NCBI GenBank assembly: GCA_017962925.1
Contig: JAGCUK010000023.1
Span: 9,005 to 73,004, forward strand
Reading direction: 5' to 3'
Source of the DNA: Bacteroidales bacterium
GTDB taxonomy: Bacteria > Bacteroidota > Bacteroidia > Bacteroidales > UBA932
DNA: 64,000 bases
The notes below the pieces were generated by a model that ran no database searches, was not told the origin of the DNA, and saw nothing but the letters and a program-made list of their open reading frames with translations. Every line of letters starts with the position of its first letter. Positions within the stretch are counted from its first letter, which is position 1. Positions 18,686 to 59,634 of the stretch are shown piece by piece. The translations under genes and the position numbers were made by a program.

Positions 18686-20068
18686 ATGTTCAGTAAAGAA
18701 ACCTATACCTCGCGCCGCGAAGAACTCAAGCGGCTTCTGAAGGGCGAAGGCGGCATCGCAGTGTTTATCGGAAATGCGGAAGCGCCGGCCCAATACAAGG
18801 ATAATTGCTATAAGTTCCGTCAGGATAGCACCTGGCTTTATTATTTCGGGCTGGACGAGCCCAAGATGGCCGCGGTCATCGACCTGGACTCCGGCAAAGA
18901 AACCCTTTATGCCGACGATTTCAGTATCGACGATATCATCTGGACCGGGCCCCAGCCGTCCGTTGCCGAGCAGGCCGCTAAAGTGGGCATCGCCAACAGC
19001 GAACCCTACGCCAAACTCGACTGGGCGGTCAGCCAAGCTATAGTCCAGGGCCGCAAGATTCATAGCATCCCCCCGTCCCGCTGGTTCAATACCTTGCGCC
19101 TGCAGGGCCTGGGCATAGACAAACCCTCCGAAGCCCTGATACGCGCAATCATCAAGATGCGCCTGGTGAAGACCCCCGAAGAAATCGCAGAACTGGACGC
19201 CGCCGGAATCCTGGGCCAGAAGATGCATACGGTAGCCCGCAAAGGCATCCGCCTGGGTAGGGTGGAACAGGAAATTGTCGGGGAGATGGAAGGAGTTACG
19301 CTAGCCGAAGGGTGGGGAGTAAGCTTCGCCACAATCCTCACCCAGCACGGAGAAGTCTTCCACAACCACGGGCACGCCTTCCCCATCGAACCCGGCAAAC
19401 TGATGGTGATCGATGCCGGCGCGGAGAGCAACTCCCACTACGCATCCGACTTCACACGCACCTATCCCACTGGAGGCAAATACACCCCGAAGCAGAGGGA
19501 TATCTACAGCATCGTATATGACTGCCACGAGTTGGCATTCTCCCTGACCAAACCCGGCACAGCCTATCGCGACGTGCACCTCGCCGTCGCACGCATGATG
19601 CTCGACTGCCTCAGCCAGCTGGGCCTGGTGAAGGGCGACCTCGACGAGATGGTGGCTGCCGGCACCGCAGGCCTCTTCATGCCTCACGGCCTCGGCCACA
19701 ATATGGGCCTGGACGTGCACGATATGGAGGATCTAGGCGAGGATCTGGTAGGATACGACCCCGACCAGACCCGCTCCACGCAGCTCGGCCTCCGTTCCCT
19801 GCGCATGGCCCGCAAACTGGTGCCCGGAAACGTCATCACCGACGAACCAGGCATCTACTTCATCCCCGACCTGATCGAACTTTGGAAGAAGGAAGGCCGT
19901 CCGTTCGTGAACTACGCCGCCCTGGAAAAGGGATATTTCGACTTCGGCGGAATCCGCATCGAAGATGATGTGCTGGTAACGGCCGACGGCGCCCGCCGCC
20001 TTGGCGGAACCCGCCTCCCCGCATCTCCGGATGACGTGGAAGCAGCAATGGAAAATGATAAATTATAG
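18686..20068 (+). CDS. pepP: Xaa-Pro aminopeptidase (M24B)
   Basis: FRQDS, YASDFTRT, HGLGH..GLDVHD, EPGIYF, GGIRIEDD. Confidence 0.92.
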   Translation: MFSKETYTSRREELKRLLKGEGGIAVFIGNAEAPAQYKDNCYKFRQDSTWLYYFGLDEPKMAAVIDLDSGKETLYADDFSIDDIIWTGPQPSVAEQAAKVGIANSEPYAKLDWAVSQAIVQGRKIHSIPPSRWFNTLRLQGLGIDKPSEALIRAIIKMRLVKTPEEIAELDAAGILGQKMHTVARKGIRLGRVEQEIVGEMEGVTLAEGWGVSFATILTQHGEVFHNHGHAFPIEPGKLMVIDAGAESNSHYASDFTRTYPTGGKYTPKQRDIYSIVYDCHELAFSLTKPGTAYRDVHLAVARMMLDCLSQLGLVKGDLDEMVAAGTAGLFMPHGLGHNMGLDVHDMEDLGEDLVGYDPDQTRSTQLGLRSLRMARKLVPGNVITDEPGIYFIPDLIELWKKEGRPFVNYAALEKGYFDFGGIRIEDDVLVTADGARRLGGTRLPASPDDVEAAMENDKL

Positions 20069-33788: not shown

Positions 33789-33911
33789 CTGACCGCTTCT
33801 TGCCGGCCTCCCGGAATTGCATAAAGGGCTTAAAAATAGAACAAGATAGCGCAGAAAACACTATATTAGCCGCTTGTAAAGCAGAAAAAACTATTTCTAA
33901 CAACCAACAAT

Positions 33912-34097
33912 ATGTTTTACACTAAAAACAAATTAACCCCCAGTTCTCAAATGGGGGGGGGTGTAAATCCCTATGAATCACCGAGTTGTACCTCGGTTGA
34001 GATTTCTGTAAACGGCCCGTTGTGCCAGAGTGGTCTTACGGATCCTGAGGTTAACCTCGGAACTGATTTGGATCTTGAATTTGGTGGAGACCTTTAA
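33912..34097 (+). CDS. Small YxxP...CxS peptide (61 aa) with internal G9 tract
   Basis: YESPSCTSVEISVNGPLCQS core matches 51113-51238; AT-rich leader. Confidence 0.7.
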   Translation: MFYTKNKLTPSSQMGGGVNPYESPSCTSVEISVNGPLCQSGLTDPEVNLGTDLDLEFGGDL

Positions 34098-34114
34098 TAA
34101 TGGAGGAAAGAGTT

Positions 34115-35875
34115 ATGACAAAGAAAGTTTTCACCGTTCTGGCCATCGCTGCCGCCATGTTTTCTTGCACAAAAGAAATCACAAACGACCAACAGCCCGA
34201 AGAAGCAGCCGGAGGTCGGCTGATTGTTAGGGCAAACAGCCCTTCTACTAAACTCACCTTTACTGATAATGGTGCGGGTGGGTATTCTGTGACGTTTCAG
34301 GATGGTACCGACCATTTGTGGGGTTATTTTAGAAATGGCGCCAGTCAGTTAAACTACATCAACAATAAAGACGAGGAAAAGACTCGTATGTTTATGGAAC
34401 TGGATGAGTCAACTTTGTCAGTTGACCACAAAAGAGCCAGTTTTACCTCTGATTGCAAGCAAATTCCAGCAGAAGCAACTAATATCTTCTTCTATCTGGA
34501 TAACAATGTTACCCCAATTACCTACAATTCCACTCCGACCTTCTGCAATCTTACGAATCAGTCCGGAACTATCGCTGACGCAAATTTATTACACGTAATA
34601 GTAGGAAACACAGAGGTTGCATCTATGACAACAGATTCTAATGGTGATAAGATTGCCGATATTACATTTGAATACAAAACCAGTGTTATCAAACTAGAGT
34701 TGACTTTCCCGGAGGAGATTGTTCCTACCGCCGATGAGAATACTGTTATTACACTTGGAGATGCAAACACTTATAATAAGGTTCATGTTTCCTGGGGAGA
34801 GCCAGGATCATCAAGCACCAAGGGTATAATAACCACGCATCCTTGCTCGGTTGCTGGACAGGTCGCCACGGCTTATATTACCGTATGGGAAGGGACTAAG
34901 TTTGATTCTACTCCGCTCATCGCACAGGTATATGGCCAAAAAGCCACAGTATTGTTATCTACTGCTGCCGTTGATGCCGGAAAGGTATATCGTCTTGCAA
35001 GAACGCTTGTCTATGATGGTGTGGAGGATGTGGACAAATGGGCCGATGACAGCGCGAATAGTTTCCCTTATGCAAAATCTCTAATCGCTAGTCCGGCTGT
35101 CGCCTGGCTGCACTATGACCCTTCTACTGGGGATGTTTCTTGGGATGAGAATACAGATGCTGAGCCCCGTACCGGTTCTATTGATTTTAGTTCCTCTACT
35201 GTCACTGTCACTCAACTTGAACCCAAAGATTTCAAGGGTGAATGGACCCTCACGAGCCAGCGTTTCAAAGGTGCAAATAAGTTGGGTTATACTAGCGCAA
35301 ATCCCGCAACGAACGATGTGGTTTTTGCTGATCCTCTTAGCTCCGCACCTCGTTATGATAGCAAAACAAAACGAAGCATTCCAAACAATATAGGAATTAC
35401 TGGCCTGTATTCCACAGCGATAATGGATGCTGTTGTTTATATTAATTATGTAGAGAAGAGTGCTCAGTTGGGGTTATTCTTTGATGCTACGTCTGCACAA
35501 TCGGTTTCTACGGGGGATGCTACATACACATACGCGGCTTTCCTACCCGAACTTGGAGGGGCCTTTGTTGGTGGTGCGTATAATTTTGTTCCTTATCCTC
35601 TTGGTACCTCCCAAAACTATGGTTGGCTTTGGATGTCTTCTAATAGCACATTTGATGAGTTTAAATACTATTTTGACAATCGCCAGACGTGGGGTGTTTC
35701 CGGGAGCATAAGCAGCAAAATCATTATAGGTATCTCTATTAATGTTTCTAAGTTAGCAACGCCCACATCAACAAGTTTCCGCGGAACAGCCAATGGTTCA
35801 ACGAATTATGAATTGATATATCAGGCAAATGCTGGCGGCAATGTTAATACTGGTATGTATTTCACTCGTAAGTAA
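34115..35875 (+). CDS. Fimbrillin/type V pilin-like lipoprotein (AT-rich)
   Basis: Lipobox MFSC, STK propeptide-like site, NQSGT and AGKVY pilin-like segments, BACON-like segment. Confidence 0.68.
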   Translation: MTKKVFTVLAIAAAMFSCTKEITNDQQPEEAAGGRLIVRANSPSTKLTFTDNGAGGYSVTFQDGTDHLWGYFRNGASQLNYINNKDEEKTRMFMELDESTLSVDHKRASFTSDCKQIPAEATNIFFYLDNNVTPITYNSTPTFCNLTNQSGTIADANLLHVIVGNTEVASMTTDSNGDKIADITFEYKTSVIKLELTFPEEIVPTADENTVITLGDANTYNKVHVSWGEPGSSSTKGIITTHPCSVAGQVATAYITVWEGTKFDSTPLIAQVYGQKATVLLSTAAVDAGKVYRLARTLVYDGVEDVDKWADDSANSFPYAKSLIASPAVAWLHYDPSTGDVSWDENTDAEPRTGSIDFSSSTVTVTQLEPKDFKGEWTLTSQRFKGANKLGYTSANPATNDVVFADPLSSAPRYDSKTKRSIPNNIGITGLYSTAIMDAVVYINYVEKSAQLGLFFDATSAQSVSTGDATYTYAAFLPELGGAFVGGAYNFVPYPLGTSQNYGWLWMSSNSTFDEFKYYFDNRQTWGVSGSISSKIIIGISINVSKLATPTSTSFRGTANGSTNYELIYQANAGGNVNTGMYFTRK

Positions 35876-35915: not shown

Positions 35916-35951
35916 CAAAAAGGGTTGTGTATTTTTGCACAACCCTTTTTG
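35916..35951. terminator. Intrinsic terminator-like hairpin
   Basis: CAAAAAGGGTTGTG...CACAACCCTTTTTG. Confidence 0.75.
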
Positions 35952-49747: not shown

Positions 49748-50830
49748 CTAATCCTTCTTCCCTTTAAAAGCGTAATATGCCTGGCGGGAAGCGAAGCCGG
49801 ACTCGTAGACGGCTTCCTGGATGGTCGCGTCCGGATGTGCCTTCAGATAGTTCTCGGCATGCTCGAGACGAAGGGTGTTGATGTAGTTGAAGAATCCACC
49901 GAATTCTCCCTTAAAGATGCCGGCGACGTAGGAGCGGTTGTAGCCGCATCTGTCAGCCACATCCTGGATGGTAAGGTGCGGTTCGAGGTAGGCCCTTTGC
50001 TCCACCACTACCGTCAGAATCGCCGCCAGAATCTCCTGATGCGTTTTGTTCGAAAGGGTCCGCTGGTAGGCGCGCTCGATCTTGGGGGCATCCTCTGGAA
50101 CATCCTTATCTCCCACGGGCCGGTTCCGGTTGGGATGGAGGGCGGAGATAATGAAGATGATTGAAGAGAAGGCAAGCAGCAGCATCGTGATGGCCACCAT
50201 CATCTGGCTGTTTGTCAGCGCCGCCGTCCATACGAACAATTGGTTGAAGAACACCAGGAACATCCACCTCCGGGCAAACACTACAGGAAAATCTGCGCGG
50301 TTGGAGAATTCATCCGCATCATAACGCTTCGCCCACAGGAGCACTACCACCATCGAGGCAATGCACACCAACGTCTCGATTGCACCGATGGAGTAAAGGG
50401 TCCAACTTGCGAGGGCGGGGTTGATGATGGTGCCAATCTGGTCCCCGGGTACAAAGGTAAGGATCTCTGCCGGCACTAGCACCAGAAAAACGGGCAGTGC
50501 GGTCAGCAACACCGGCGCCTTCCACCTGCGCCATTGCATGACGCTTCCGAAGTAGGAGAATTGGAGGATGATGTAATGGAATATGGTGGTAGGGAGAATA
50601 AAGATTCTGGCGAGATACCAGGCATCCGCGCTTTCCGGGTTGATAATATAGGGGATGATGAGGATGGAACTGAGGAAAACGCCTGTCACATAGGGCCTTC
50701 CGGGATAGTAGTAGCGCGGTGCGGTATTGAAGGGCTTGCACATGTGGAACCAGCGCACGGCTGCATTCACCAAAAACGTGGCGAGAAACATCGCCGCGCA
50801 GATTCCATAGAAATAAGAGAGTTTAGACAT
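49748..50830 (-). CDS. Membrane-anchored AraC-family regulator
   Basis: About six TM helices, then YL.P.LT..DVA...NRSY, YINTLRL, SGF.SR..YY. Confidence 0.88.
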   Translation of the reverse strand: MSKLSYFYGICAAMFLATFLVNAAVRWFHMCKPFNTAPRYYYPGRPYVTGVFLSSILIIPYIINPESADAWYLARIFILPTTIFHYIILQFSYFGSVMQWRRWKAPVLLTALPVFLVLVPAEILTFVPGDQIGTIINPALASWTLYSIGAIETLVCIASMVVVLLWAKRYDADEFSNRADFPVVFARRWMFLVFFNQLFVWTAALTNSQMMVAITMLLLAFSSIIFIISALHPNRNRPVGDKDVPEDAPKIERAYQRTLSNKTHQEILAAILTVVVEQRAYLEPHLTIQDVADRCGYNRSYVAGIFKGEFGGFFNYINTLRLEHAENYLKAHPDATIQEAVYESGFASRQAYYAFKGKKD

Positions 50831-50885
50831 TGACGGACACAAAGGTAATAAAAAGCAACCGAATCTGGTGCACGAAAAACACCGT

Positions 50886-50951
50886 TGACTCAAATATGAC
50901 AGTTTTTTGACGGATGCGTGACAGTCGTGCGCGCGATTGTTTTTATATTTG
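50886..50951 (+). promoter_or_regulatory. 4x TGAC array (11-bp period) plus -7 element
   Basis: TGAC at 50886, 50897, 50908, 50919; TATATTTG at 50944-50951. Confidence 0.65.
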
Positions 50952-50973: not shown

Positions 50974-51108
50974 ATGGAAAAAACAACCATTATCATCGTG
51001 GCCATCGCTGTCGTGCTCATCCTTGCATGGGTCGTAGCGATGGTCTTTACTGTTCGTAGGGCCATAGGTAAATCCAAAGAGGCAAAAGAAAAGGCCAGTC
51101 AAGATTGA
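50974..51108 (+). CDS. 44-aa single-TM small protein (not in ORF track)
   Basis: Manual translation MEKTTIIIVAIAVVLILAWVVAMVFTVRRAIGKSKEAKEKASQD; first ORF after the promoter. Confidence 0.65.
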   Translation: MEKTTIIIVAIAVVLILAWVVAMVFTVRRAIGKSKEAKEKASQD

Positions 51109-51112
51109 GATT

Positions 51113-51238
51113 ATGGAAGCAAAATTCAAGAAAACCTATCAAACTCCCGCCATGCTGGTTGTGGAGCTAAAGGCGGAAGGCATTGTGTGTATGTCCCAGG
51201 ATGATTACAACTGGGGAAGTCTGGATGAAAATGATTAA
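51113..51238 (+). CDS. 41-aa YxxP...CxS peptide (not in ORF track)
   Basis: Manual translation MEAKFKKTYQTPAMLVVELKAEGIVCMSQDDYNWGSLDEND; same core as 33912-34097. Confidence 0.75.
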   Translation: MEAKFKKTYQTPAMLVVELKAEGIVCMSQDDYNWGSLDEND

Positions 51239-51251
51239 GGAGGGCGAGAAA

Positions 51252-54200
51252 ATGAAACACAACACAATGAAACAGCTTTTCGCAGTTGTGCTGACAATAG
51301 CAGCGCTGATTACTGGGCAGAGCGTCTGGGCAGCAAGTTCGTTCACCGTGGAGTGCACGAACAACACGTTCACCGTTACCCGAACCACCAACACCACGAC
51401 GACAGAAACTGTCTGTTACCGCACGGTGAGTCTGTCCGCTCTTGAAGGCAAGAACTTCACTTCGGCCACGGGCAATCTCGTTTTCGACGCTGATCACAAC
51501 ACCCGCTCGGTTACCATCACCGAAACATCCATTAATTCGATCGATGCCAAATACTGTTTCCAGAACAGTACCACCCGAGCATACCGTTTTGAGGTCGTCG
51601 ATAAGGCCGGTCTTTATCTGGCGCATTGCGACCGCACTATCACCTATGGCGACGATTACGTGGTCGATGATAAATATGTAAACCAAAGCATCACTGATCT
51701 GGTATACTTTCAGAACGGAAGGATGTATTCCGGAGTTCCGACTACTAAATACTACGATGTGGTTCATGCCGGCACATCAAATACCGACCTTAAGATCGAT
51801 GATGGGTATGATTACAACAACAATACTCTTTGCACAGTCAGTACCAGCTCCTTCTTCAATCAGTTGAAAGCTCCTCAGTCTTACTACAATGACCTGAAAT
51901 ACAAGTTGTATGCTACCGTCCATTTCGAGCAGAAAGAAAAGGATGACGGGTATCAGTACATCCAGATACTGACTGACAACAGTACAACCTATGATGGTAA
52001 GGACGGAGATGGTAAAATCGACAACGGTCCTTCGACATCCATCTACAAGGCCGCGTTTATCCTGACCAAGACAGAGAATGTCTATAGCTCAGGTTATAAG
52101 TTTCAGGCTTTTCCTCATAAATCCGACGATACCTACAACAATAGGGAGTTCGACTATTCCGACAGCTATCTTTATCAGCAGAAGTTCCAGAGTGCTTCTT
52201 ATCGTGCCGAAAACTCCGGTTCGCTGGTGCTCAGCCCTACGGTAAATAATATAAACGTCCGTTTTGATGCTAACGGCAGCGGTGACGATACTTGGTATGT
52301 CCGGAACCTCAAGGTGCGATTAGCCCTTTGCGACGCAACTTCACCCACGCGTAACTCCTTCTGTGTAGCCCCTGGCCGTCACTCAAGAGGCGACAGGGTA
52401 TATGTTTCGGTCGCTTTCAGCGAAACAGTCACCATCAGCGGCAGCACAAAAAAACTATCCAGCAGTTGGGGCGACCTCACTTATGTGGAAGGCAACAAAA
52501 CCAATGTGCTGACCTTCATGGGCACCATTCCGGATAATGCGACAGGGGCGCTCAATATCACAGGGCTGACCGGGGATATCGCCGACCTTGTGTGGAATGC
52601 TTTTGATGCCAACGATATCAAAACCGATGGGATATGCGCCCTTGACGAAAGCTATGCATTCACCATCAACTATGACCTTGCGGGCGGCAGCGTGGCAAGC
52701 GCCAATCCTGGAACATACACATGGGATAGTGCATCATTTACATTGAATAATCCCACCAGGACCGGTTACGTATTCACTGGATGGACCGGGAGCAACGGGG
52801 ACACTCCTCAAACCGAGGTTACTATTGCCAATCATTCCAACGGAGATCGCACCTACACCGCCAACTGGGTCCAGGTCTGGAGCGGCAGCGGCACTGCCGG
52901 AGATCCATATATCATCTCTTCCACTCAGGGGCTGGATGCGTTGGCTTCTTATGTGAACGGCGGTAATAACTGCAGCGGCGTTTACTTCGAACTTGGATCC
53001 AATATCTCTTACTCGCCTAGTGCTGGTTGGTCTGCTCTTTCCAATATGGAGCACAACTACTACGCCATCGGCACCAGCGACCATCCTTTCAGCGGCTCCT
53101 TCAATGGTAAGGATTACACAATTAGTGGCATTCGGATTTTCAAAGGCTCGGAAGGTTCAAATAGCAGCAACCAAGGCATTTTCGGTGTGGTCGAAAACGG
53201 AACCGTCAGCAATGTCAAGCTCTCTAATTCCCGCATCACTGGCAGGAACAATGCCGGAGGCATAGTCGGCCATAGTATTAATTCTGTAGTTGAGGGTTGC
53301 ACTGTTGGCAATAATGTCGCTATCAGCACCTTTACTCTTGACTGTAATCAGCACGGAGGAATCGTGGGCCTGAAAGAAGGGGGCGAAGTCCAGCGCTGCA
53401 TCAGCAGCGTCACGCTTGGTTTGACGAGTAATTCCGGTGGTGAGAAGTATGGCGCAATCGTGGGGAGTAACCAGTCCGGAATTGTATCGCACTGTGTGGC
53501 CACGGGAGCCACCGTGCCGACCGTTTCTTCCATTGGCGCTATCGCTGGAGTCAATTCCGGGGATCTGCAGAACAACTACTATTACTCCTGCACCGTCGCC
53601 AACACTTCCAACGCTGTTGATGTTGGATGCAACGGGGCCGATGTGGCTATCGACAACGGTGCTGTATCTATGCATACCATTTCTCTCCCCGCGACTGTCA
53701 CCATCGCATCTCGCGATGCCGTGGAGCCCCTCCCTGGCAGCGACAATGCGGTTTTCGCCAGTGGCGCACGGATAAGCAGCACAGAATATTATGCTGTAAA
53801 CAGTAGCGTTTCGCTCAATTATGTAGGTGACGTGGCAAATGATTGTAGCGTGATATATTCTGCAACTGCGGGCACCATTGACAATAATGTCTTTACCGTG
53901 CCGGCAGCCAATGCCAGTATAAGTGCCGGAGTGTTCAAAAATGATTATATCACCCATTGGCAGGCCAGCCCTACCCATAGTGGTTCCGCTTCGAGCACTG
54001 CTTACCTCATCACGACTCCCGAAGGCTTGCTATTACTCTCAAGTGAAGTCGCAGCCGGGAACAGTTTTGAGGACAAGTATTTCAAAGTGGACAATGACAT
54101 AGATATGAGTGGAGTGGCAAACTTTACTCCTATCGGAACAGATGATGTTACACATAGATTCAAAGGCTATTTTGATGGTAATAACAAGACAATCCGCCAT

Positions 54201-55127
54201 CTTACCGTCGATAGGGGCGAGAGTAACTTTGCCGGTTTATTCGGCTCTATATCTCTTCATGAAGTCAAGAACATTATTCTGGATGAAGCCAGAATAACAG
54301 GCAAGAGAAATATTGGAGGCATTGTCGGTTATTTGGCCAGTGCAACCATAAGCAATTGTGTGGTTACCAGATCTATTTTGACTTCAACCAACAATTCTTC
54401 CTCGGCTATGGGTGCAATTATTGGCAACGTAATTGCCAGTAATAGTAAAATAAATCAAAACAAATATCACAGTACAATAGTCTATGTAACGAATTATTCC
54501 GGCTCGGATTTTCATAATGGAGGAGATTCATTCAACATCGGCGTTGGATCCACGTTCTCTGGTTCTGGTGGAGATATCAGTGACGCCTGCCTTGATGCAA
54601 GCCAACTGATGCTTCCAGAAGATGCCGATTTCTGTACCGCGCTTCTAACTGCATATAACAATCCTTCAGCGCATACTGCATACGGTGGATCAGCTCCAAA
54701 TGTTGGAGCCTTGACCCAGGTCTCTCTCTCCGCCACTCAGGCAAATGTCTTTGGCGAATCTAAGTACGTTACCACTTTCTTCAACGAAACGGTTTATCAC
54801 TTGCTTCCGGAGGATGCCAGGGCCTACACCGCAAGTCTGTCCGGCTCTAAAATCGTCTTCCATCTGATTGGTAATGATGGGCGTGTAATCCCGAGCGGCA
54901 CGGCGGCAATCATCGTGTCTGATTCTTCCACGGTCACGCTTGCCAAAGTTGCATCACAGAATGTGTCGGTTTACGCCGGCAATATCTTGCAGGGGTCCGA
55001 CACAGAAATTGCAGCGCCTGCAGGAACCGTGTATGTGCTGGGGATTTCCAACAACACTCTCGGATTCTACAAGTACACCGGAAGCACTATTCCTGCCGGC
55101 AAGGCATATTATGTTGTGAATGAATAA
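51252..55127 (+). CDS. Large secreted adhesin-like protein (Calx-beta-like, InlB B-repeat-like, two GLUG-type regions)
   Basis: Signal peptide VWA; YDLAGG...NPTRTGYVFTGW; GSGTAGDPYII; repeated GGIVG. Confidence 0.78.
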   Translation: MKHNTMKQLFAVVLTIAALITGQSVWAASSFTVECTNNTFTVTRTTNTTTTETVCYRTVSLSALEGKNFTSATGNLVFDADHNTRSVTITETSINSIDAKYCFQNSTTRAYRFEVVDKAGLYLAHCDRTITYGDDYVVDDKYVNQSITDLVYFQNGRMYSGVPTTKYYDVVHAGTSNTDLKIDDGYDYNNNTLCTVSTSSFFNQLKAPQSYYNDLKYKLYATVHFEQKEKDDGYQYIQILTDNSTTYDGKDGDGKIDNGPSTSIYKAAFILTKTENVYSSGYKFQAFPHKSDDTYNNREFDYSDSYLYQQKFQSASYRAENSGSLVLSPTVNNINVRFDANGSGDDTWYVRNLKVRLALCDATSPTRNSFCVAPGRHSRGDRVYVSVAFSETVTISGSTKKLSSSWGDLTYVEGNKTNVLTFMGTIPDNATGALNITGLTGDIADLVWNAFDANDIKTDGICALDESYAFTINYDLAGGSVASANPGTYTWDSASFTLNNPTRTGYVFTGWTGSNGDTPQTEVTIANHSNGDRTYTANWVQVWSGSGTAGDPYIISSTQGLDALASYVNGGNNCSGVYFELGSNISYSPSAGWSALSNMEHNYYAIGTSDHPFSGSFNGKDYTISGIRIFKGSEGSNSSNQGIFGVVENGTVSNVKLSNSRITGRNNAGGIVGHSINSVVEGCTVGNNVAISTFTLDCNQHGGIVGLKEGGEVQRCISSVTLGLTSNSGGEKYGAIVGSNQSGIVSHCVATGATVPTVSSIGAIAGVNSGDLQNNYYYSCTVANTSNAVDVGCNGADVAIDNGAVSMHTISLPATVTIASRDAVEPLPGSDNAVFASGARISSTEYYAVNSSVSLNYVGDVANDCSVIYSATAGTIDNNVFTVPAANASISAGVFKNDYITHWQASPTHSGSASSTAYLITTPEGLLLLSSEVAAGNSFEDKYFKVDNDIDMSGVANFTPIGTDDVTHRFKGYFDGNNKTIRHLTVDRGESNFAGLFGSISLHEVKNIILDEARITGKRNIGGIVGYLASATISNCVVTRSILTSTNNSSSAMGAIIGNVIASNSKINQNKYHSTIVYVTNYSGSDFHNGGDSFNIGVGSTFSGSGGDISDACLDASQLMLPEDADFCTALLTAYNNPSAHTAYGGSAPNVGALTQVSLSATQANVFGESKYVTTFFNETVYHLLPEDARAYTASLSGSKIVFHLIGNDGRVIPSGTAAIIVSDSSTVTLAKVASQNVSVYAGNILQGSDTEIAAPAGTVYVLGISNNTLGFYKYTGSTIPAGKAYYVVNE

Positions 55128-55140
55128 GGAGGACTACTGT

Positions 55141-56118
55141 ATGAAAAAGAATAGATTTCTCGACAAGTTCGAAATTACAATACTGGCCCTTGCGGGCGCA
55201 TTTGCTCTGACTTGTTGCCAGAAGATAGAGGAAACGGCTATCGAAGAAAATACTGAGGCGGTGGAGCAGGAATCCTCCACGACATATTCTATCACCATCA
55301 GGGCCGAAAGAATCCCCGGCCCGGGGGAGGATGAAGGAACTTCGACCAAAGGGCTGGAGATTGGCGACGGCACCGAGGCTACAACAACGCTGCTTAAGTC
55401 TGTCTGGAAGAATAATGAAAGTGTAATCGTTTATCTGGGCTCATTAATAATCGGCACACTGTCTGTCCTGCCGGACGCCGGAGATCCACATGTGGCTACC
55501 CTTTACGGGAAGATCAGTAATAGCTCGAACATCGAAGCAGGCGTTACTACGCTCACGCTTCTCACTCCGCGTTCTACATGGGCCTACACCATGCAGACAG
55601 GAAAGCTGATGCAGGTCAGCGGCTCTATCGAAAAGGATTATAACTATACCATGGCTTCTTCTGTGCTTGTAACCAGCGTCGACGTCGGTAAAGACATAAT
55701 AACTACGGAAGATGCTCATTTTGCCCATCAACAGAGCATCTACCGCATGAGCTTTCGCTACAACGACGGTGTGAGCAAGACCCCTATCACTACCAGTTCC
55801 GTGACCATCTCCAGCGCGAACGGGCATCTGGTCCAGCGTGAAGTAGTGGGTGGCGCCCCCACCGAAGGAGACATCACCGTCTCCTTGCCCTCAGCTTCTG
55901 TCGATCCCTTCTTTGTTGCCTTGCGCAATGGTGACGAGACCAATGCGGAAGCCCTTACTTTCACCGTAGTGGACAACTCAGGCGTGACCTACCGCGGCAC
56001 AAAAGTAATCCCTGCTGAGTACAAGCCTAACGGCACCTTCGTGAGCATGAAGAATGCCTCCCTCACGGAGCGCTTAGACATTCCCCTCAGCGCCACCGAA
56101 GTGAATACGGTGCTGTAG
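55141..56118 (+). CDS. Fimbrillin-like lipoprotein
   Basis: Lipobox LTCC, STKG propeptide-like site, Y..QTG and F.HQQSI pilin-like segments. Confidence 0.65.
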   Translation: MKKNRFLDKFEITILALAGAFALTCCQKIEETAIEENTEAVEQESSTTYSITIRAERIPGPGEDEGTSTKGLEIGDGTEATTTLLKSVWKNNESVIVYLGSLIIGTLSVLPDAGDPHVATLYGKISNSSNIEAGVTTLTLLTPRSTWAYTMQTGKLMQVSGSIEKDYNYTMASSVLVTSVDVGKDIITTEDAHFAHQQSIYRMSFRYNDGVSKTPITTSSVTISSANGHLVQREVVGGAPTEGDITVSLPSASVDPFFVALRNGDETNAEALTFTVVDNSGVTYRGTKVIPAEYKPNGTFVSMKNASLTERLDIPLSATEVNTVL

Positions 56119-56119
56119 A

Positions 56120-56773
56120 TTATGTGGTGACGATTCCCTTGGCGACGGCGGTCGCGACGCATTGAATGATGCTGTCCTGGCCGAATTTCACCTTAATACG
56201 CTCCTTATAGCTATCTACCGTGTTCAGAGAAATCTCCATGGCGGAAGCTATTTGGGCGTTGCTGTATCCGGATGTGGTCAGCTGAAGAACCTCAAGTTCG
56301 CGGGGCGTAAGTCCCTGGGGTTTCCTCGCCTCCAGGTTCTCTTTGCCGCCGAATAGACGCGTAATCTGCGGAGTATCGATGGTCTCGCCGAAGAACAGAC
56401 ATTTACCGGAAGCCACATCCGTAACAGCCTTCACTATTGAATCCGGTGAGGAATCCTTGGCCAGATAGGCGCATGCGCCGGAGCTGATGGCCTTTAGTAT
56501 ATATGCCGGAATCTTGTAGTGCGAAAGCACCAGGGTGCGCACCGCGGGGAAGGCCTCCCGGAGTATGCCCAGCAAGGTCAGGCCATCAGTTTCCGCTTCC
56601 AGCGAAATATCTACGACGGCGACGTCGGTTTCGGGATGTGAGTTCAGAAAGGCTACTGCGGAGCCCGGTGTGGTCACGGATTCCACGGAGCCAAAAGCAC
56701 TGTTGGCCGAAAGCGCCAGCTTCAGCCCCATCACGAAAACGGCGGAATCCTCTATCAGCAATACATTTATCAT
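56120..56773 (-). CDS. NarL/LuxR-family response regulator
   Basis: LLIED, VVDISL, YLAK, LTPRELEVL...GYSN.QIA. Confidence 0.93.
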   Translation of the reverse strand: MINVLLIEDSAVFVMGLKLALSANSAFGSVESVTTPGSAVAFLNSHPETDVAVVDISLEAETDGLTLLGILREAFPAVRTLVLSHYKIPAYILKAISSGACAYLAKDSSPDSIVKAVTDVASGKCLFFGETIDTPQITRLFGGKENLEARKPQGLTPRELEVLQLTTSGYSNAQIASAMEISLNTVDSYKERIKVKFGQDSIIQCVATAVAKGIVTT

Positions 56774-59634
56774 AAGTTGAGCGTTATTTCAAGTCCACCT
56801 TCCGGCAGATTGCGGGCCGCCATCGACGCCCCCATTTTCTCCAGAAGTTCTCGGGTAATCACTAGCCCGAGGCCATGTCCATAGCCCGCAGAAGCATCCT
56901 TCAGTCCCGGACCCTTGTCTATAATGAAAATCTGCCTTCCGCGTGCCTTCAGCTGCACTTTCTCCCCGCCGGGGGTAACTTTGACGGCATTGTCCAGCAG
57001 GTTCCTTAGGCAGGTCAGGAGCATATTCTTGTCGGTCCGGACGGCCAGCCCCGCAGGGATATCTACCTCGATCGCCTCACTCTTCCGCACACTGCCCACC
57101 GCCTCCGCCGCAAGCGCGGCCAGATCCTCCTCCCGCATCACCGGCTCCAGCATCCCCTTTTGATTCAGGGACCAGAGCAGGAGGTTCTCCAGCAAGGAGG
57201 ATGTGTTTTCGGTGGAATCGGTCAGTATCCGCAGGCCCTCCTTCATCTGCTCGGGCGAAAGTGCATCGGCCTGCTCCAGCAACTGGCGAGAGAGCAGCCG
57301 GTTGCCGTTGACGGGGTTCCTGAGGTCGTGGGAGATGATGGAGAAGAAGCGGTTTCGTGTGTCCAGCTCCTGAATCAGGATCTTGCGCTCGCGGAGTCGG
57401 ATGACCAGCCATACCAGGGCCAGCGCCAGCAGCAGATACAGCAGCAGGAAGGGCCAGCGGAGCAGCAGCGGCTGCGGAACCCGGATCTCGCGGGTGCCGG
57501 ATTCGCCCTTTTCCCATCTTCCGAAAACATCAGTGCTCTGCTCCTCCAGGGTATAGCGCCCGGGCATGATGTGCTCCGGCAGAGCGGCAAAGCGCCCGCT
57601 CACCCATTCTCCCTTGTTCAGGCGGTAGCGATGCTGCACGAGTGGCGCCAGGGGCAGATTCCCGGCTGCGCCGATGGCAAGGAGGCTGTCCGGATGGAAG
57701 ATTGCCGCCCCCTCGGGCCCGCCGAATGCCAGTCGGCCGTCGGAGAGCAAGAACGCGGATTTTTCCCCATAGACATCGGAGGGGAAACCCAGCGCGGCGT
57801 GAGCACAACCTATGCTGCCGTCAGTATCGATGAAGTAGAGCCCTTCCTCCGTGCCTGCCCAGATGCGCCCTTTGACATCAGCGCGGACCGACTGCACCAG
57901 TTTCCCCCGAAGGAGGGATTGCCGGCCGTGTCCGTCCTGCCCGGGTGTCCAGATTCCCGCGTGGGTGGCGACCCAGAGCTTGCCGTCCGGCGCAAAACAG
58001 AGGTCCGTCACATAATTATCGGGGAGCGAAAGGCTGTCGGCAGGGTCCTGCAGGAACTTCGTCACCAGGCGCGTATCCTTATCTATTATATTGAGCCCGG
58101 CCTCGGTGGTGCCATAGACCAGATTTCCGTCCTTATCCTCTATCAAGCGGCTTCCCAGGCGCGAGCTGAGGTAGATGCTGGAGTCGTTCTGGGGCGTGGG
58201 GTAGAAGAAGGGACTCAGCCATTCTGCCGGCGCTGTCCTGCCGGTCCTGCGGTCCCACTCGTTCATGCCGACCCCCTCCCATGTAACCACCCAGAAGCGG
58301 CCGTCGCGCCCTTCCAGGAAGTCCATTATCCAATTGGAAGTGATCCTGTCCCCCCAGGCAACGATATCCTGTTTCTTGGGGATGGGCCCGCTCACGGCGC
58401 CCCTGCGCACGCGGCCGTTCTGCCAGATGTTGAAGCCGCAGCCTGCGTAGAGGCCGATGTAAACCGCCCCCGTGCTGTCTTCGTAGAGGCAGGAGACGTG
58501 GCCTTCGTTGGAGCGCCCGGCCGGACGGTAATCTATATGCGAGATGTGGTTGTTGCCGTCGATTGCGAAGGCTCCGCTGTCGGCGGTTCCCACCCATAGG
58601 CGGCCGTCGGAAGCCTCCATCAGTGCCGTCACCTGCTTTGACGGGAGATCCAGCGTCTGAACCTGCTGTAGTGCCGGGCAAAGCACCGAAAGGCCGCTGT
58701 CTCCACCGGTCCAGATGTTTCCCTGCCGGTCCTCGAAGATGCAGTAAACCTCTCCCGAGGCCAGCGAAGAGGGATCATCCGCCCTATGCTTATATACCAC
58801 AGTTTCCTCCGGCTTTGCCAGATTCACCAGCCCTATTCCGTAGGATCCGGCAGCCCACAGGCGCCCCCGACTGTCTGTCATCAGCCTGGCATGGGAGATG
58901 GGGAGGCGGCCGATGGTGATTATATCCGGCCCGTCGAAGGTGTTGATGGTGGAGAGATGGTCGTCGATGGCATACATGATGCCACCGGCTTCGGCATAAT
59001 TCGCCGTGCAGTAGGTGTCGGAGAAGCGCAGTTGCGATTGCGGATGCGCGCGGTCTGCCACGAACTGGGCACGTACCAGGCGCCCGCCTATCCAGAGGCG
59101 TCCCCCGTGATCCTCATATATCTGATAATAAGGATAGTCCCCTTCGTTGTAGCGTTTGGAGTAGGATGTCCGGACCTCCTCCCACACTCCCTCCTGCGGC
59201 GAATAGCTTAGCTTCAGCAGCACGCTGTCGCCTACGGTCGCCCACACATACCCGTCGGAATCCGTCGTCATGGCGCGGACGTTGCCGCTGGGGCCTTTCT
59301 GCCATTCCTGATCGGGCATCCTCACGCACAGCCCCGCCGTCGTCCCCACCCACAGCCGGCCCTCGCGGTCCATAGTCAGGGCAGACACTCGCCGCGCGGG
59401 CAGATCCTCCTGCCAGACCTGGAAGGAACTGCCGTCGAATCGCGCCAGGCCGTTCCCCGTCCCTATCCAAAGGAACCCGTCCGCATCCTGCGTTATGGCA
59501 TAGACGCTGTTGGATGGCAGGCCGTCGGCGGCACTGTAGTTCACGAACCTGGGAGTATTGGCCACGCCGGGAAAGGGGAGGGCCTTCCAGGCCATCCCGA
59601 GAAGCAACATCAGTATGAGAGCAACGCGTCGCAT
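56770..59634 (-). CDS. Sensor histidine kinase with periplasmic beta-propeller repeats
   Basis: GLPSN, D..G.LW.GT repeats, TM helix, SHDLRNP, NLLDNAVK, DKGPG, GHGLGL. Confidence 0.9.
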   Translation of the reverse strand: MRRVALILMLLLGMAWKALPFPGVANTPRFVNYSAADGLPSNSVYAITQDADGFLWIGTGNGLARFDGSSFQVWQEDLPARRVSALTMDREGRLWVGTTAGLCVRMPDQEWQKGPSGNVRAMTTDSDGYVWATVGDSVLLKLSYSPQEGVWEEVRTSYSKRYNEGDYPYYQIYEDHGGRLWIGGRLVRAQFVADRAHPQSQLRFSDTYCTANYAEAGGIMYAIDDHLSTINTFDGPDIITIGRLPISHARLMTDSRGRLWAAGSYGIGLVNLAKPEETVVYKHRADDPSSLASGEVYCIFEDRQGNIWTGGDSGLSVLCPALQQVQTLDLPSKQVTALMEASDGRLWVGTADSGAFAIDGNNHISHIDYRPAGRSNEGHVSCLYEDSTGAVYIGLYAGCGFNIWQNGRVRRGAVSGPIPKKQDIVAWGDRITSNWIMDFLEGRDGRFWVVTWEGVGMNEWDRRTGRTAPAEWLSPFFYPTPQNDSSIYLSSRLGSRLIEDKDGNLVYGTTEAGLNIIDKDTRLVTKFLQDPADSLSLPDNYVTDLCFAPDGKLWVATHAGIWTPGQDGHGRQSLLRGKLVQSVRADVKGRIWAGTEEGLYFIDTDGSIGCAHAALGFPSDVYGEKSAFLLSDGRLAFGGPEGAAIFHPDSLLAIGAAGNLPLAPLVQHRYRLNKGEWVSGRFAALPEHIMPGRYTLEEQSTDVFGRWEKGESGTREIRVPQPLLLRWPFLLLYLLLALALVWLVIRLRERKILIQELDTRNRFFSIISHDLRNPVNGNRLLSRQLLEQADALSPEQMKEGLRILTDSTENTSSLLENLLLWSLNQKGMLEPVMREEDLAALAAEAVGSVRKSEAIEVDIPAGLAVRTDKNMLLTCLRNLLDNAVKVTPGGEKVQLKARGRQIFIIDKGPGLKDASAGYGHGLGLVITRELLEKMGASMAARNLPEGGLEITLNL

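Follow-up and report, generated by a model that had tools for sequence, protein, structure and literature searches.

Scattered YxxP...CxS peptides ahead of pilin and adhesin genes in Bacteroidales: probable precursors of a pathway resembling that of linear polyphosphorylated peptides

What is the role of a very short open reading frame (ORF) that ends a few nucleotides before the gene of a large surface protein, and encodes a peptide lacking a secretion signal of its own? The question is raised by two loci in a stretch of 64,000 nucleotides from a Bacteroidales bacterium (GenBank assembly GCA_017962925.1, contig JAGCUK010000023.1, positions 9,005 to 73,004; hereafter the window). A preliminary description had noted two related micropeptides there, and had offered three explanations: a donor strand, chaperone or cap for pilin-like proteins, a precursor processed in trans, or a translational leader. 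Of these, the trans-processed precursor is the best supported, as a recognition protein, a protease and a kinase are encoded on another contig and co-occur with the peptide family. The peptides are probably precursors of RiPPs (peptides made by ribosomes and modified after translation), in a pathway similar to that of linear polyphosphorylated peptides (LPP); their genes are scattered and coupled to pilin or adhesin genes, and maturation in trans by the cassette on contig C78 is predicted. The main features of the two loci are as follows.

33912-34097, + strand: probable precursor peptide 1 of 61 aa, its YxxP...CxS core spanning 33972-34031 and its acidic tail 34032-34094; frame, length and stop are the same in the orthologues at loci L148-L152, where pN (non-synonymous differences) is well below pS (synonymous differences)
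34102-34106, + strand: GGAGG Shine-Dalgarno-like site between the peptide 1 stop and the pilin start, kept in 5/5 orthologues while its flanks vary
34115-35875, + strand: 586-aa lipoprotein (Cys18), tip-like, with a predicted N-terminal type V pilin fold (AlphaFold2, Foldseek), a BACON-like domain (E 2e-5) and a C-terminal beta domain
51113-51238, + strand: probable precursor peptide 2 of 41 aa, its YxxP...CxS core spanning 51137-51196; an AGGAGG sequence occupies 51238-51243
51252-55127, + strand: 1291-aa secreted adhesin-like protein with Calx-beta and InlB-B/List-Bact repeat; non-lipoprotein signal (by eye)
55120-56118, + strand: fimbrillin-like lipoprotein, final gene of locus 2; ESM Atlas scores of 0.95-0.97 to fimbrillin-named clusters, no Pfam match

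The 20-residue cores of the two peptides align without gaps, with identical Y1, P4, V9, E10, G15, C18 and S20 and an Ile or Leu at position 11. Each core is followed by an acidic tail, and a hydrophobic signal stretch is absent from both as judged by eye. The peptide stop is separated from the next ATG by 17 nt at locus 1 (ATG 34115, kept in 5/5 orthologous loci) and by 13 nt at locus 2 (ATG 51252). The ORFs and the alignment agree in all these respects with the preliminary description. Its statement that a large secreted or pilin-like gene lies downstream needs refinement: a pilin fold is predicted at locus 1, while the 51252 protein is secreted but not a pilin, and is itself followed by the fimbrillin-like gene. 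Locus 1 forms a two-gene AT-rich island (43.5% GC vs 54-56% in its surroundings). The 34115 protein misses the pilin profile; the best Foldseek matches of its AlphaFold2 model (mean pLDDT confidence 80.5) are Bacteroidales pilins (4rdb, 3ufi, 4k4k and Mfa4 5dhm; E 1e-7 to 2e-6). As a lipoprotein with a modelled two-domain pilin fold it would belong to the type V pilins, and no stalk-type donor tail was seen in it.

A regular expression built on the two window cores only gave 10 matches in the 2.03 Mb genome that carries the window (G000, 84% complete; the window lies on its contig C70), eight being family members and two junk. All five newly found members with a readable neighbour sit ahead of a lipoprotein gene. 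Profiles added two members, giving 10 family copies on nine contigs. The suggestion of a dispersed small-protein family beside pilin and adhesin genes is supported. A profile that contained these 10 peptides or near-identical relatives, run over 50,818 stop-to-stop segments, gave 10 matches at E<=6e-8 before a jump to 0.6 for the following one, while the reversed database yielded nothing at E<=1. A profile of the 10 G000 peptides reached 717 clusters (50% identity, E<=0.001) among 1.84 billion representatives, and peptide 2 falls in an unnamed ESM Atlas cluster of 2541 members (score 0.92). The core consensus is Y-x-x-P-x-h-E-V-h-E-h-x-x-E-G-h-h-C-x-S, followed by a variable tail rich in Gly, Asp, Glu and Asn (median 18 aa); conservation is 99% for the Tyr, 100% for the Pro and 95% each for the Cys and Ser, figures that are biased by the profile and refer to 148 of the best 150 sequences, two long proteins having been dropped. 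Pfam and NCBIfam held a family model for none of the 10 G000 peptides (one chance match, E 0.067), the peptide profile found no more than two chance matches among PDB sequences, and a description of this family was not found in literature searches of open-licence texts. A 521-aa cluster member (P0158), considered as a fusion form, has no visible likeness to the peptide, and hence gives no sign of fusion.

Orthologues of peptide 1 could be compared at five loci (L148-L152); a sixth, L153, is unrelated. Against the closest orthologue, 15 synonymous and three non-synonymous changes were counted over 41 codons, and in the orthologue tails pN is 0.06-0.14 vs a pS of 0.63-0.67. Since length and stop are kept and pN is well below pS, peptide 1 is by this comparison under purifying selection as a protein, tail included. 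In a DNA search of 151 genus genomes locus 1 was recovered from G000 only, plus one 31-base match. In other families of the Bacteroidales (L044-L046, L049, L050, L055-L057, L064, L065, L068) peptides have Met for Cys, Pro-rich tails and a spacing of 21, and adjoin large secreted proteins without lipoprotein signals. A phylum-wide sample gave two weak peptide matches in 200 (L206 and L207, in G499 and G444), which fall outside the order and are both directly 3' of a nucleotidyltransferase-like gene, possibly in SynChlorMet-type cassettes (a guess by eye).

The pairing with surface proteins extends well beyond the window. In G000, nine copies have a neighbour that could be read, and in all nine it is a secreted protein encoded just downstream: eight lipoproteins and the 51252 protein. 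When 29 family loci are added, 36 of 40 peptides are followed by the start of a long ORF within 150 nt, and 35 of these 36 ORFs carry lipoprotein signals (29 by script, six by eye). The pilin profile is matched at E<0.01 by 18/36 of the downstream ORFs vs 9/132 G000 lipoproteins, three of the latter being peptide-linked themselves. Many neighbours have C-terminal adhesin-type domains (LRR, DUF285, Lcl_C, Big_2), and one is a GH20 enzyme (L120). Among 50 loci with a PF13149 pilin, in 10 genomes picked as peptide-rich, a peptide precedes 13/24 long pilins (>=434 aa; one of the 13 peptides was found by a relaxed pattern) and 0/26 short ones; 20/22 intact short pilins end in a Trp-bearing donor-type tail of their own. 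None of the 10 G000 peptides lies on the two contigs that hold the 10 PF13149 matches of this genome. Contig C63 of G000 lacks a peptide gene and carries arrays of short fimbrillins of the classical kind, whose C-terminal tails bear a Trp. Units of peptide and lipoprotein are tandemly duplicated at L129, L135, L139 and L131, and their near-identical peptides and signal regions suggest that the pair is copied as one unit.

A GGAGG or AGGAG sequence follows the peptide stop in 6/9 G000 copies vs 13/288 control junctions, and in 11/30 family loci. Translation of the peptide and the downstream gene is likely to be coupled, as this Shine-Dalgarno-like site is enriched in a class whose ribosomes, according to the available text of PMC9976891 and PMC7797042, normally ignore such sequences.

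The absence of RiPP enzymes from the window, noted at the outset, is explained by a cassette elsewhere, at C78:16626-19810. It encodes an HprK-like kinase, a signal-peptidase-like protease (S24/S26), a PqqD protein acting as the putative RiPP recognition element (RRE) and an ABC exporter. There is no precursor gene on C78, all 10 G000 copies being on other contigs. The PqqD match is strong (E 1.8e-15); the peptidase is most similar to archaeal-type signal peptidase I (E 3e-6), and the kinase, with an invariant His, a Walker A motif and a DD motif, to ScmC (E 5e-6, a weak family match). Ser33, His71 and Gly85-Asp86 of the peptidase, which has an S24/S26 fold, are invariant in 25/25 homologues, and a Glu occupies the likely place of the third triad residue in this lineage. 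Asn35 and Asp73 of the RRE are conserved and align with Asn33/Asp70 of LppB, which grip the Pro and Tyr of the YxxP motif (PMC13381572, as far as its available text goes). When the RRE was modelled together with peptide 2, the score was 0.43 vs 0.01 for the best control, with contacts agreeing to at least 89% and a partner pLDDT of at least 55. This is a weak pass: the mark is reached by 116/157 solved and 2/215 mismatched pairs, and scores up to 0.60 comprise only 18/157 solved pairs and both mismatches. It may also reflect memory of solved complexes, since like complexes have already been solved.

Generic PqqD proteins occur in 105 of 151 order-wide genomes (one draw), too many for a co-occurrence test, and profiles of the kinase and protease were therefore used. 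In these genomes the kinase was found in 15/19 peptide-positive genomes vs 10/132 others, and in 9/13 vs 9/131 when seven seed genomes were left out. Among 121 family genomes it occurs in 46/52 peptide-positive genomes vs 21/69 others, and the protease in 47/52 vs 23/69 (three partial matches dropped). Counting by genus gave 10/12 vs 3/17. The control fimbrillin PF13149 does not predict peptide presence (45/52 vs 51/69, p=0.11), and within the fimbrillin-positive family genomes the protease is still present in 41/45 vs 21/51. Two of the four order-wide exceptions are G048, where the peptide is surrounded by an RRE, a radical SAM protein (rSAM) and the same protease, and G104, which looks lasso-type. 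The G048 locus (L141, G048:C84:193-2265) is a radical-SAM-type cassette of ABC, RRE and rSAM-like genes with that protease and a YxxP peptide that contains Cys, and adjoins polysaccharide-export-like genes.

In relatives, peptide and enzyme genes also occur together. In 17 hand-picked regions the peptide is in or beside the cassette in 13 (four from one genus) and absent in four; among 25 unselected kinase loci a YxxP...S gene lies within 1.5 kb on either side in five, two of them seeds. Peptide-lipoprotein units are joined directly to the enzymes in G100, G160, G165, G207 and G254, and peptides lie between the RRE and kinase genes in G101, G102 and G026. A frequent order in the hand-picked regions is peptide, lipoprotein, kinase, protease, RRE, nucleotidyltransferase, ABC exporter.

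The closest described system is LPP biosynthesis, encoded by lppA-K-B-S-D-N of Paenibacillus alginolyticus (Popov et al. 2026, PMC13381572). In the available text of that paper LppK polyphosphorylates Ser3 of the core, LppS cleaves after Thr-1 only in the presence of LppB and needs the FET motif, and the Tyr and the phosphorylated Ser of LppA are positions 1 and 19. Shared with LPP are a discrete RRE, an archaeal-type signal-peptidase-like leader protease, an HprK-like kinase, an MsbA-like exporter (interrupted in G000, full length in relatives), NTP_transf_5 (in relatives), the lack of a cyclase, and a YxxP leader that ends in x-x-Ser ahead of a variable core. Judged by its sequences, G000 appears to possess the defining RRE with Asn and Asp, the SpI/SipW-like peptidase with Ser and His, and the kinase. 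In contrast to LPP, the leaders here lack HQ and FET, are one residue longer and have a Cys two positions before the Ser, so that of the full consensus YxxPxVLxHQxIxFETxxS the YxxP and Ser are kept. Moreover, a genome can have as many as 21 precursor genes, which lie dispersed at a distance from the enzymes and are coupled to pilin or adhesin rather than capsule genes; in G000 the precursor genes are outside the cassette, whereas in several relatives one is inside the cluster. LPP is called Bacillota-restricted and its role is stated to be unknown, and its clusters lie in capsule loci; the main text has no match for Bacteroid, lipoprotein, pilin or fimbri, while a table lists five Bacteroidota protease-RRE pairs with undetermined precursor, their RREs filed under 'others'. 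For the first and last of these reasons we prefer to say that the system works like LPP rather than that it is LPP. This paper makes it less likely that the system is wholly undescribed, as the LPP genes are the same set and the leaders resemble each other.

By analogy, the PqqD/RRE protein would bind the YxxP motif, after which the HprK-like kinase would (poly)phosphorylate Ser20, matching Ser3 of LppA. The SipW-like protease would then cleave off the leader, the most likely site being between [LIV]17 and Cys18, so that C-x-pS and some 18 aa of acidic tail are left. Cleavage before Cys18 keeps the Ser at +3 as in LppA, with C-x-S where LppA has A-Q-S; the alternative, a cut just before Ser20, would place a hydrophobic residue at -3. 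The nucleotidyltransferase, where present, might decorate the phosphate, and the ABC transporter would export the product. Least certain, and in our view less likely than not, is the final step, in which the peptide, once exported, would work on the cell surface with the tip-type pilin made alongside it.

Several observations weigh against an LPP-like pathway. The F-E-T cleavage motif is absent, with Gly at -3 in 117/141 sequences; the spacing from Tyr to Ser is 20 (140/141) and not 19 as in LPP; and the RRE profile ranks lasso RREs above LppB. Related genomes are not independent, so that p-values overstate the association, although the count by genus agrees with it. Neither enzyme was found in 5/52 peptide-positive family genomes (of four of these searched, only G264 has PqqD), and 21/67 kinase-positive genomes have no peptide match; when kinase-positive genomes were checked by hand, peptides were found in G207 and G254 and none within 15 kb in G203 and G235. 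In G000 itself, an in-frame TAG interrupts the ABC gene just before the signature motif (C78:19577-19579; L010:11578-11580), and NTP_transf_5 or another nucleotidyltransferase was not found in this 84% complete genome. Because of these two defects the pathway may be decaying in G000. The exporter is full length in relatives, and the nucleotidyltransferase is present in their cassettes and in 44/60 genus genomes. The frame of the G000 exporter continues after the TAG to a normal end near 19810, which would fit a real lesion or an assembly error.

Two other kinds of system share parts of this equipment. Phosphorylated lasso peptides of the paeninodin and pseudomycoidin type have an RRE, an HPr-kinase homologue acting on Ser, a nucleotidyltransferase and an ABC exporter (available text of PMC8498205), but the system described here has no cyclase or B2 protease and its conserved Ser is internal, not C-terminal. 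SynChlorMet systems (ScmC TIGR04249, ScmD TIGR04248) and their rSAM versions resemble it in that the best NCBIfam match of the kinase is ScmC, and in the related leaders that accompany an RRE, an rSAM and the same protease in G048; the C78 cassette differs in having no radical SAM enzyme, and the tails here are nearly free of Cys.

Among other explanations, the one that survives best, though we hold it to be doubtful, is that the phosphopeptide, when mature, serves as a signal that diffuses, or as a primer or carrier of surface glycans, linked to the adhesins via co-regulation and joint movement only. The capsule-locus position of LPP clusters (PMC13381572, in part) points this way, as do the hypervariability of tails between loci and the regulatory genes flanking locus 2. 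A common upstream regulator was not seen, however: upstream of 30 family peptides the genes are of various kinds, and only one was recognized by eye as an AraC-like sensor. The coupling over 2-20 nt, the kept GGAGG and the bias to long pilins would also be left unexplained.

Unlikely in our view, yet compatible with the LPP-like pathway as a specific version of its last step, is that tip pilins standing alone use the mature tail as their donor strand, supplied free, or as a minimal anchor. The lipid-anchored first strand of the pilin might be cut at the T-K/R loop and the peptide fill the groove, and the modified Ser or N-terminal Cys might tie the adhesin to the envelope. Taken further, a RiPP would be a structural component of a pilus: one cassette would mature at least ten phosphopeptides, each specific to a locus, produced in step with the tip pilin encoded there, and taking the place of stalk and anchor pilins, a scheme to which we likewise assign a small probability. 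As in type V pili (Mfa/Fim; PMC13655056, in part), the 34115 protein has a lipobox, a Lys in the loop after the first strand and the modelled two-domain fold, but it stands alone with a peptide gene, without stalk and anchor pilins. The same source, so far as available, describes tip pilins without donor strands and a donor whose last residue is essential; a peptide partner of type V pilins was not found in the literature searched. The restriction of peptides to long pilins, the donor-type tails of short ones, the avoidance of the PF13149 contigs in G000 and translational coupling all fit a donor or anchor, as do tails that are conserved among orthologues and divergent among paralogues, and that end in hydrophobic-x-hydrophobic in 38/146 cases vs 5.7 when shuffled. 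The donor-tail score of the peptide tails (0.56 vs -0.67 shuffled) is not directional, however, as it rises to 0.82 when the tails are reversed; [IV]xDW shows no enrichment (5/146 vs 5.3) and the i,i+2 periodicity is flat (z 0.7). Moreover, the split between long and short pilins is confounded by operon position and by the choice of peptide-rich genomes, some neighbours are not pilins (the 51252 protein, the GH20 lipoprotein at L120, the large non-lipoprotein secreted proteins of other families), and peptide presence does not track fimbrillin presence.

That the ORF is a translational leader only, feeding ribosomes to the next gene or regulating it, so that enzymes are unneeded, we consider improbable. 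The enriched Shine-Dalgarno-like site speaks for a leader function as one part of the role, but hardly for the whole of it, as it would leave unexplained why the peptides carry an RRE-binding motif and an invariant Cys and Ser, co-occur with the cassette, and in places lie between RRE and kinase genes. That the peptides are orphan lasso-peptide precursors is very improbable: the YxxP leader and a discrete RRE with lasso B1 proteins as best PDB and NCBIfam matches would suit this, but in G000, at 84% completeness, neither B2 protease nor cyclase was found (only a 36-aa P-loop match), and the RRE found at lasso-type loci in this order is of another subtype. Most of L011-L039 belong to a second common type of RRE locus, with sulfotransferase-like, HPr-kinase-like and B2-like genes (lasso-type by eye).

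Further features of the two loci are listed below.

35916-35951, strand unassigned: 14-bp hairpin with U-tracts, likely terminator of the two-gene unit; scored on the minus strand, with a T run on the plus strand too
50944-50951, + strand: TAnnTTTG match upstream of locus 2 (a match only)
50974-51108, + strand: 44-aa ORF with one membrane helix, directly 5' of peptide 2; only sub-threshold matches to membrane-helix families

We take TAnnTTTG to be the Bacteroidota -7 promoter consensus. The 44-aa ORF, which has no family, sits between this match and peptide 2. A membrane-anchored AraC-type regulator (49748-50893, - strand) is divergent from locus 2, and a pair resembling a sensor kinase and response regulator (by eye; 56120-59634, - strand) is convergent on it. 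Upstream of locus 1 no sigma-70 or TAnnTTTG match was found; GCAGAAAA occurs there twice, at 33840-33895, ahead of peptide 1, and is a possible regulator site. RNA contigs from four runs did not cover peptide 2, and coverage of the cassette consists of fragments from relatives.

New in the present analysis are the trans arrangement, the co-occurrence with a control for pilin content, the finding that the tail is under selection, and the preference for tip-type pilins. An abundant small-protein family missed by Pfam and NCBIfam is thereby brought to light, and probable substrates are assigned to PqqD-kinase-protease cassettes that previously had none. Mining based on gene clusters would miss such precursors, far as they are from their enzymes. 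A Bacteroidales version with many precursors per genome, each tied to a surface adhesin, would extend the range of LPP-like pathways, and offers a concrete lead for a function of LPP at the cell surface.
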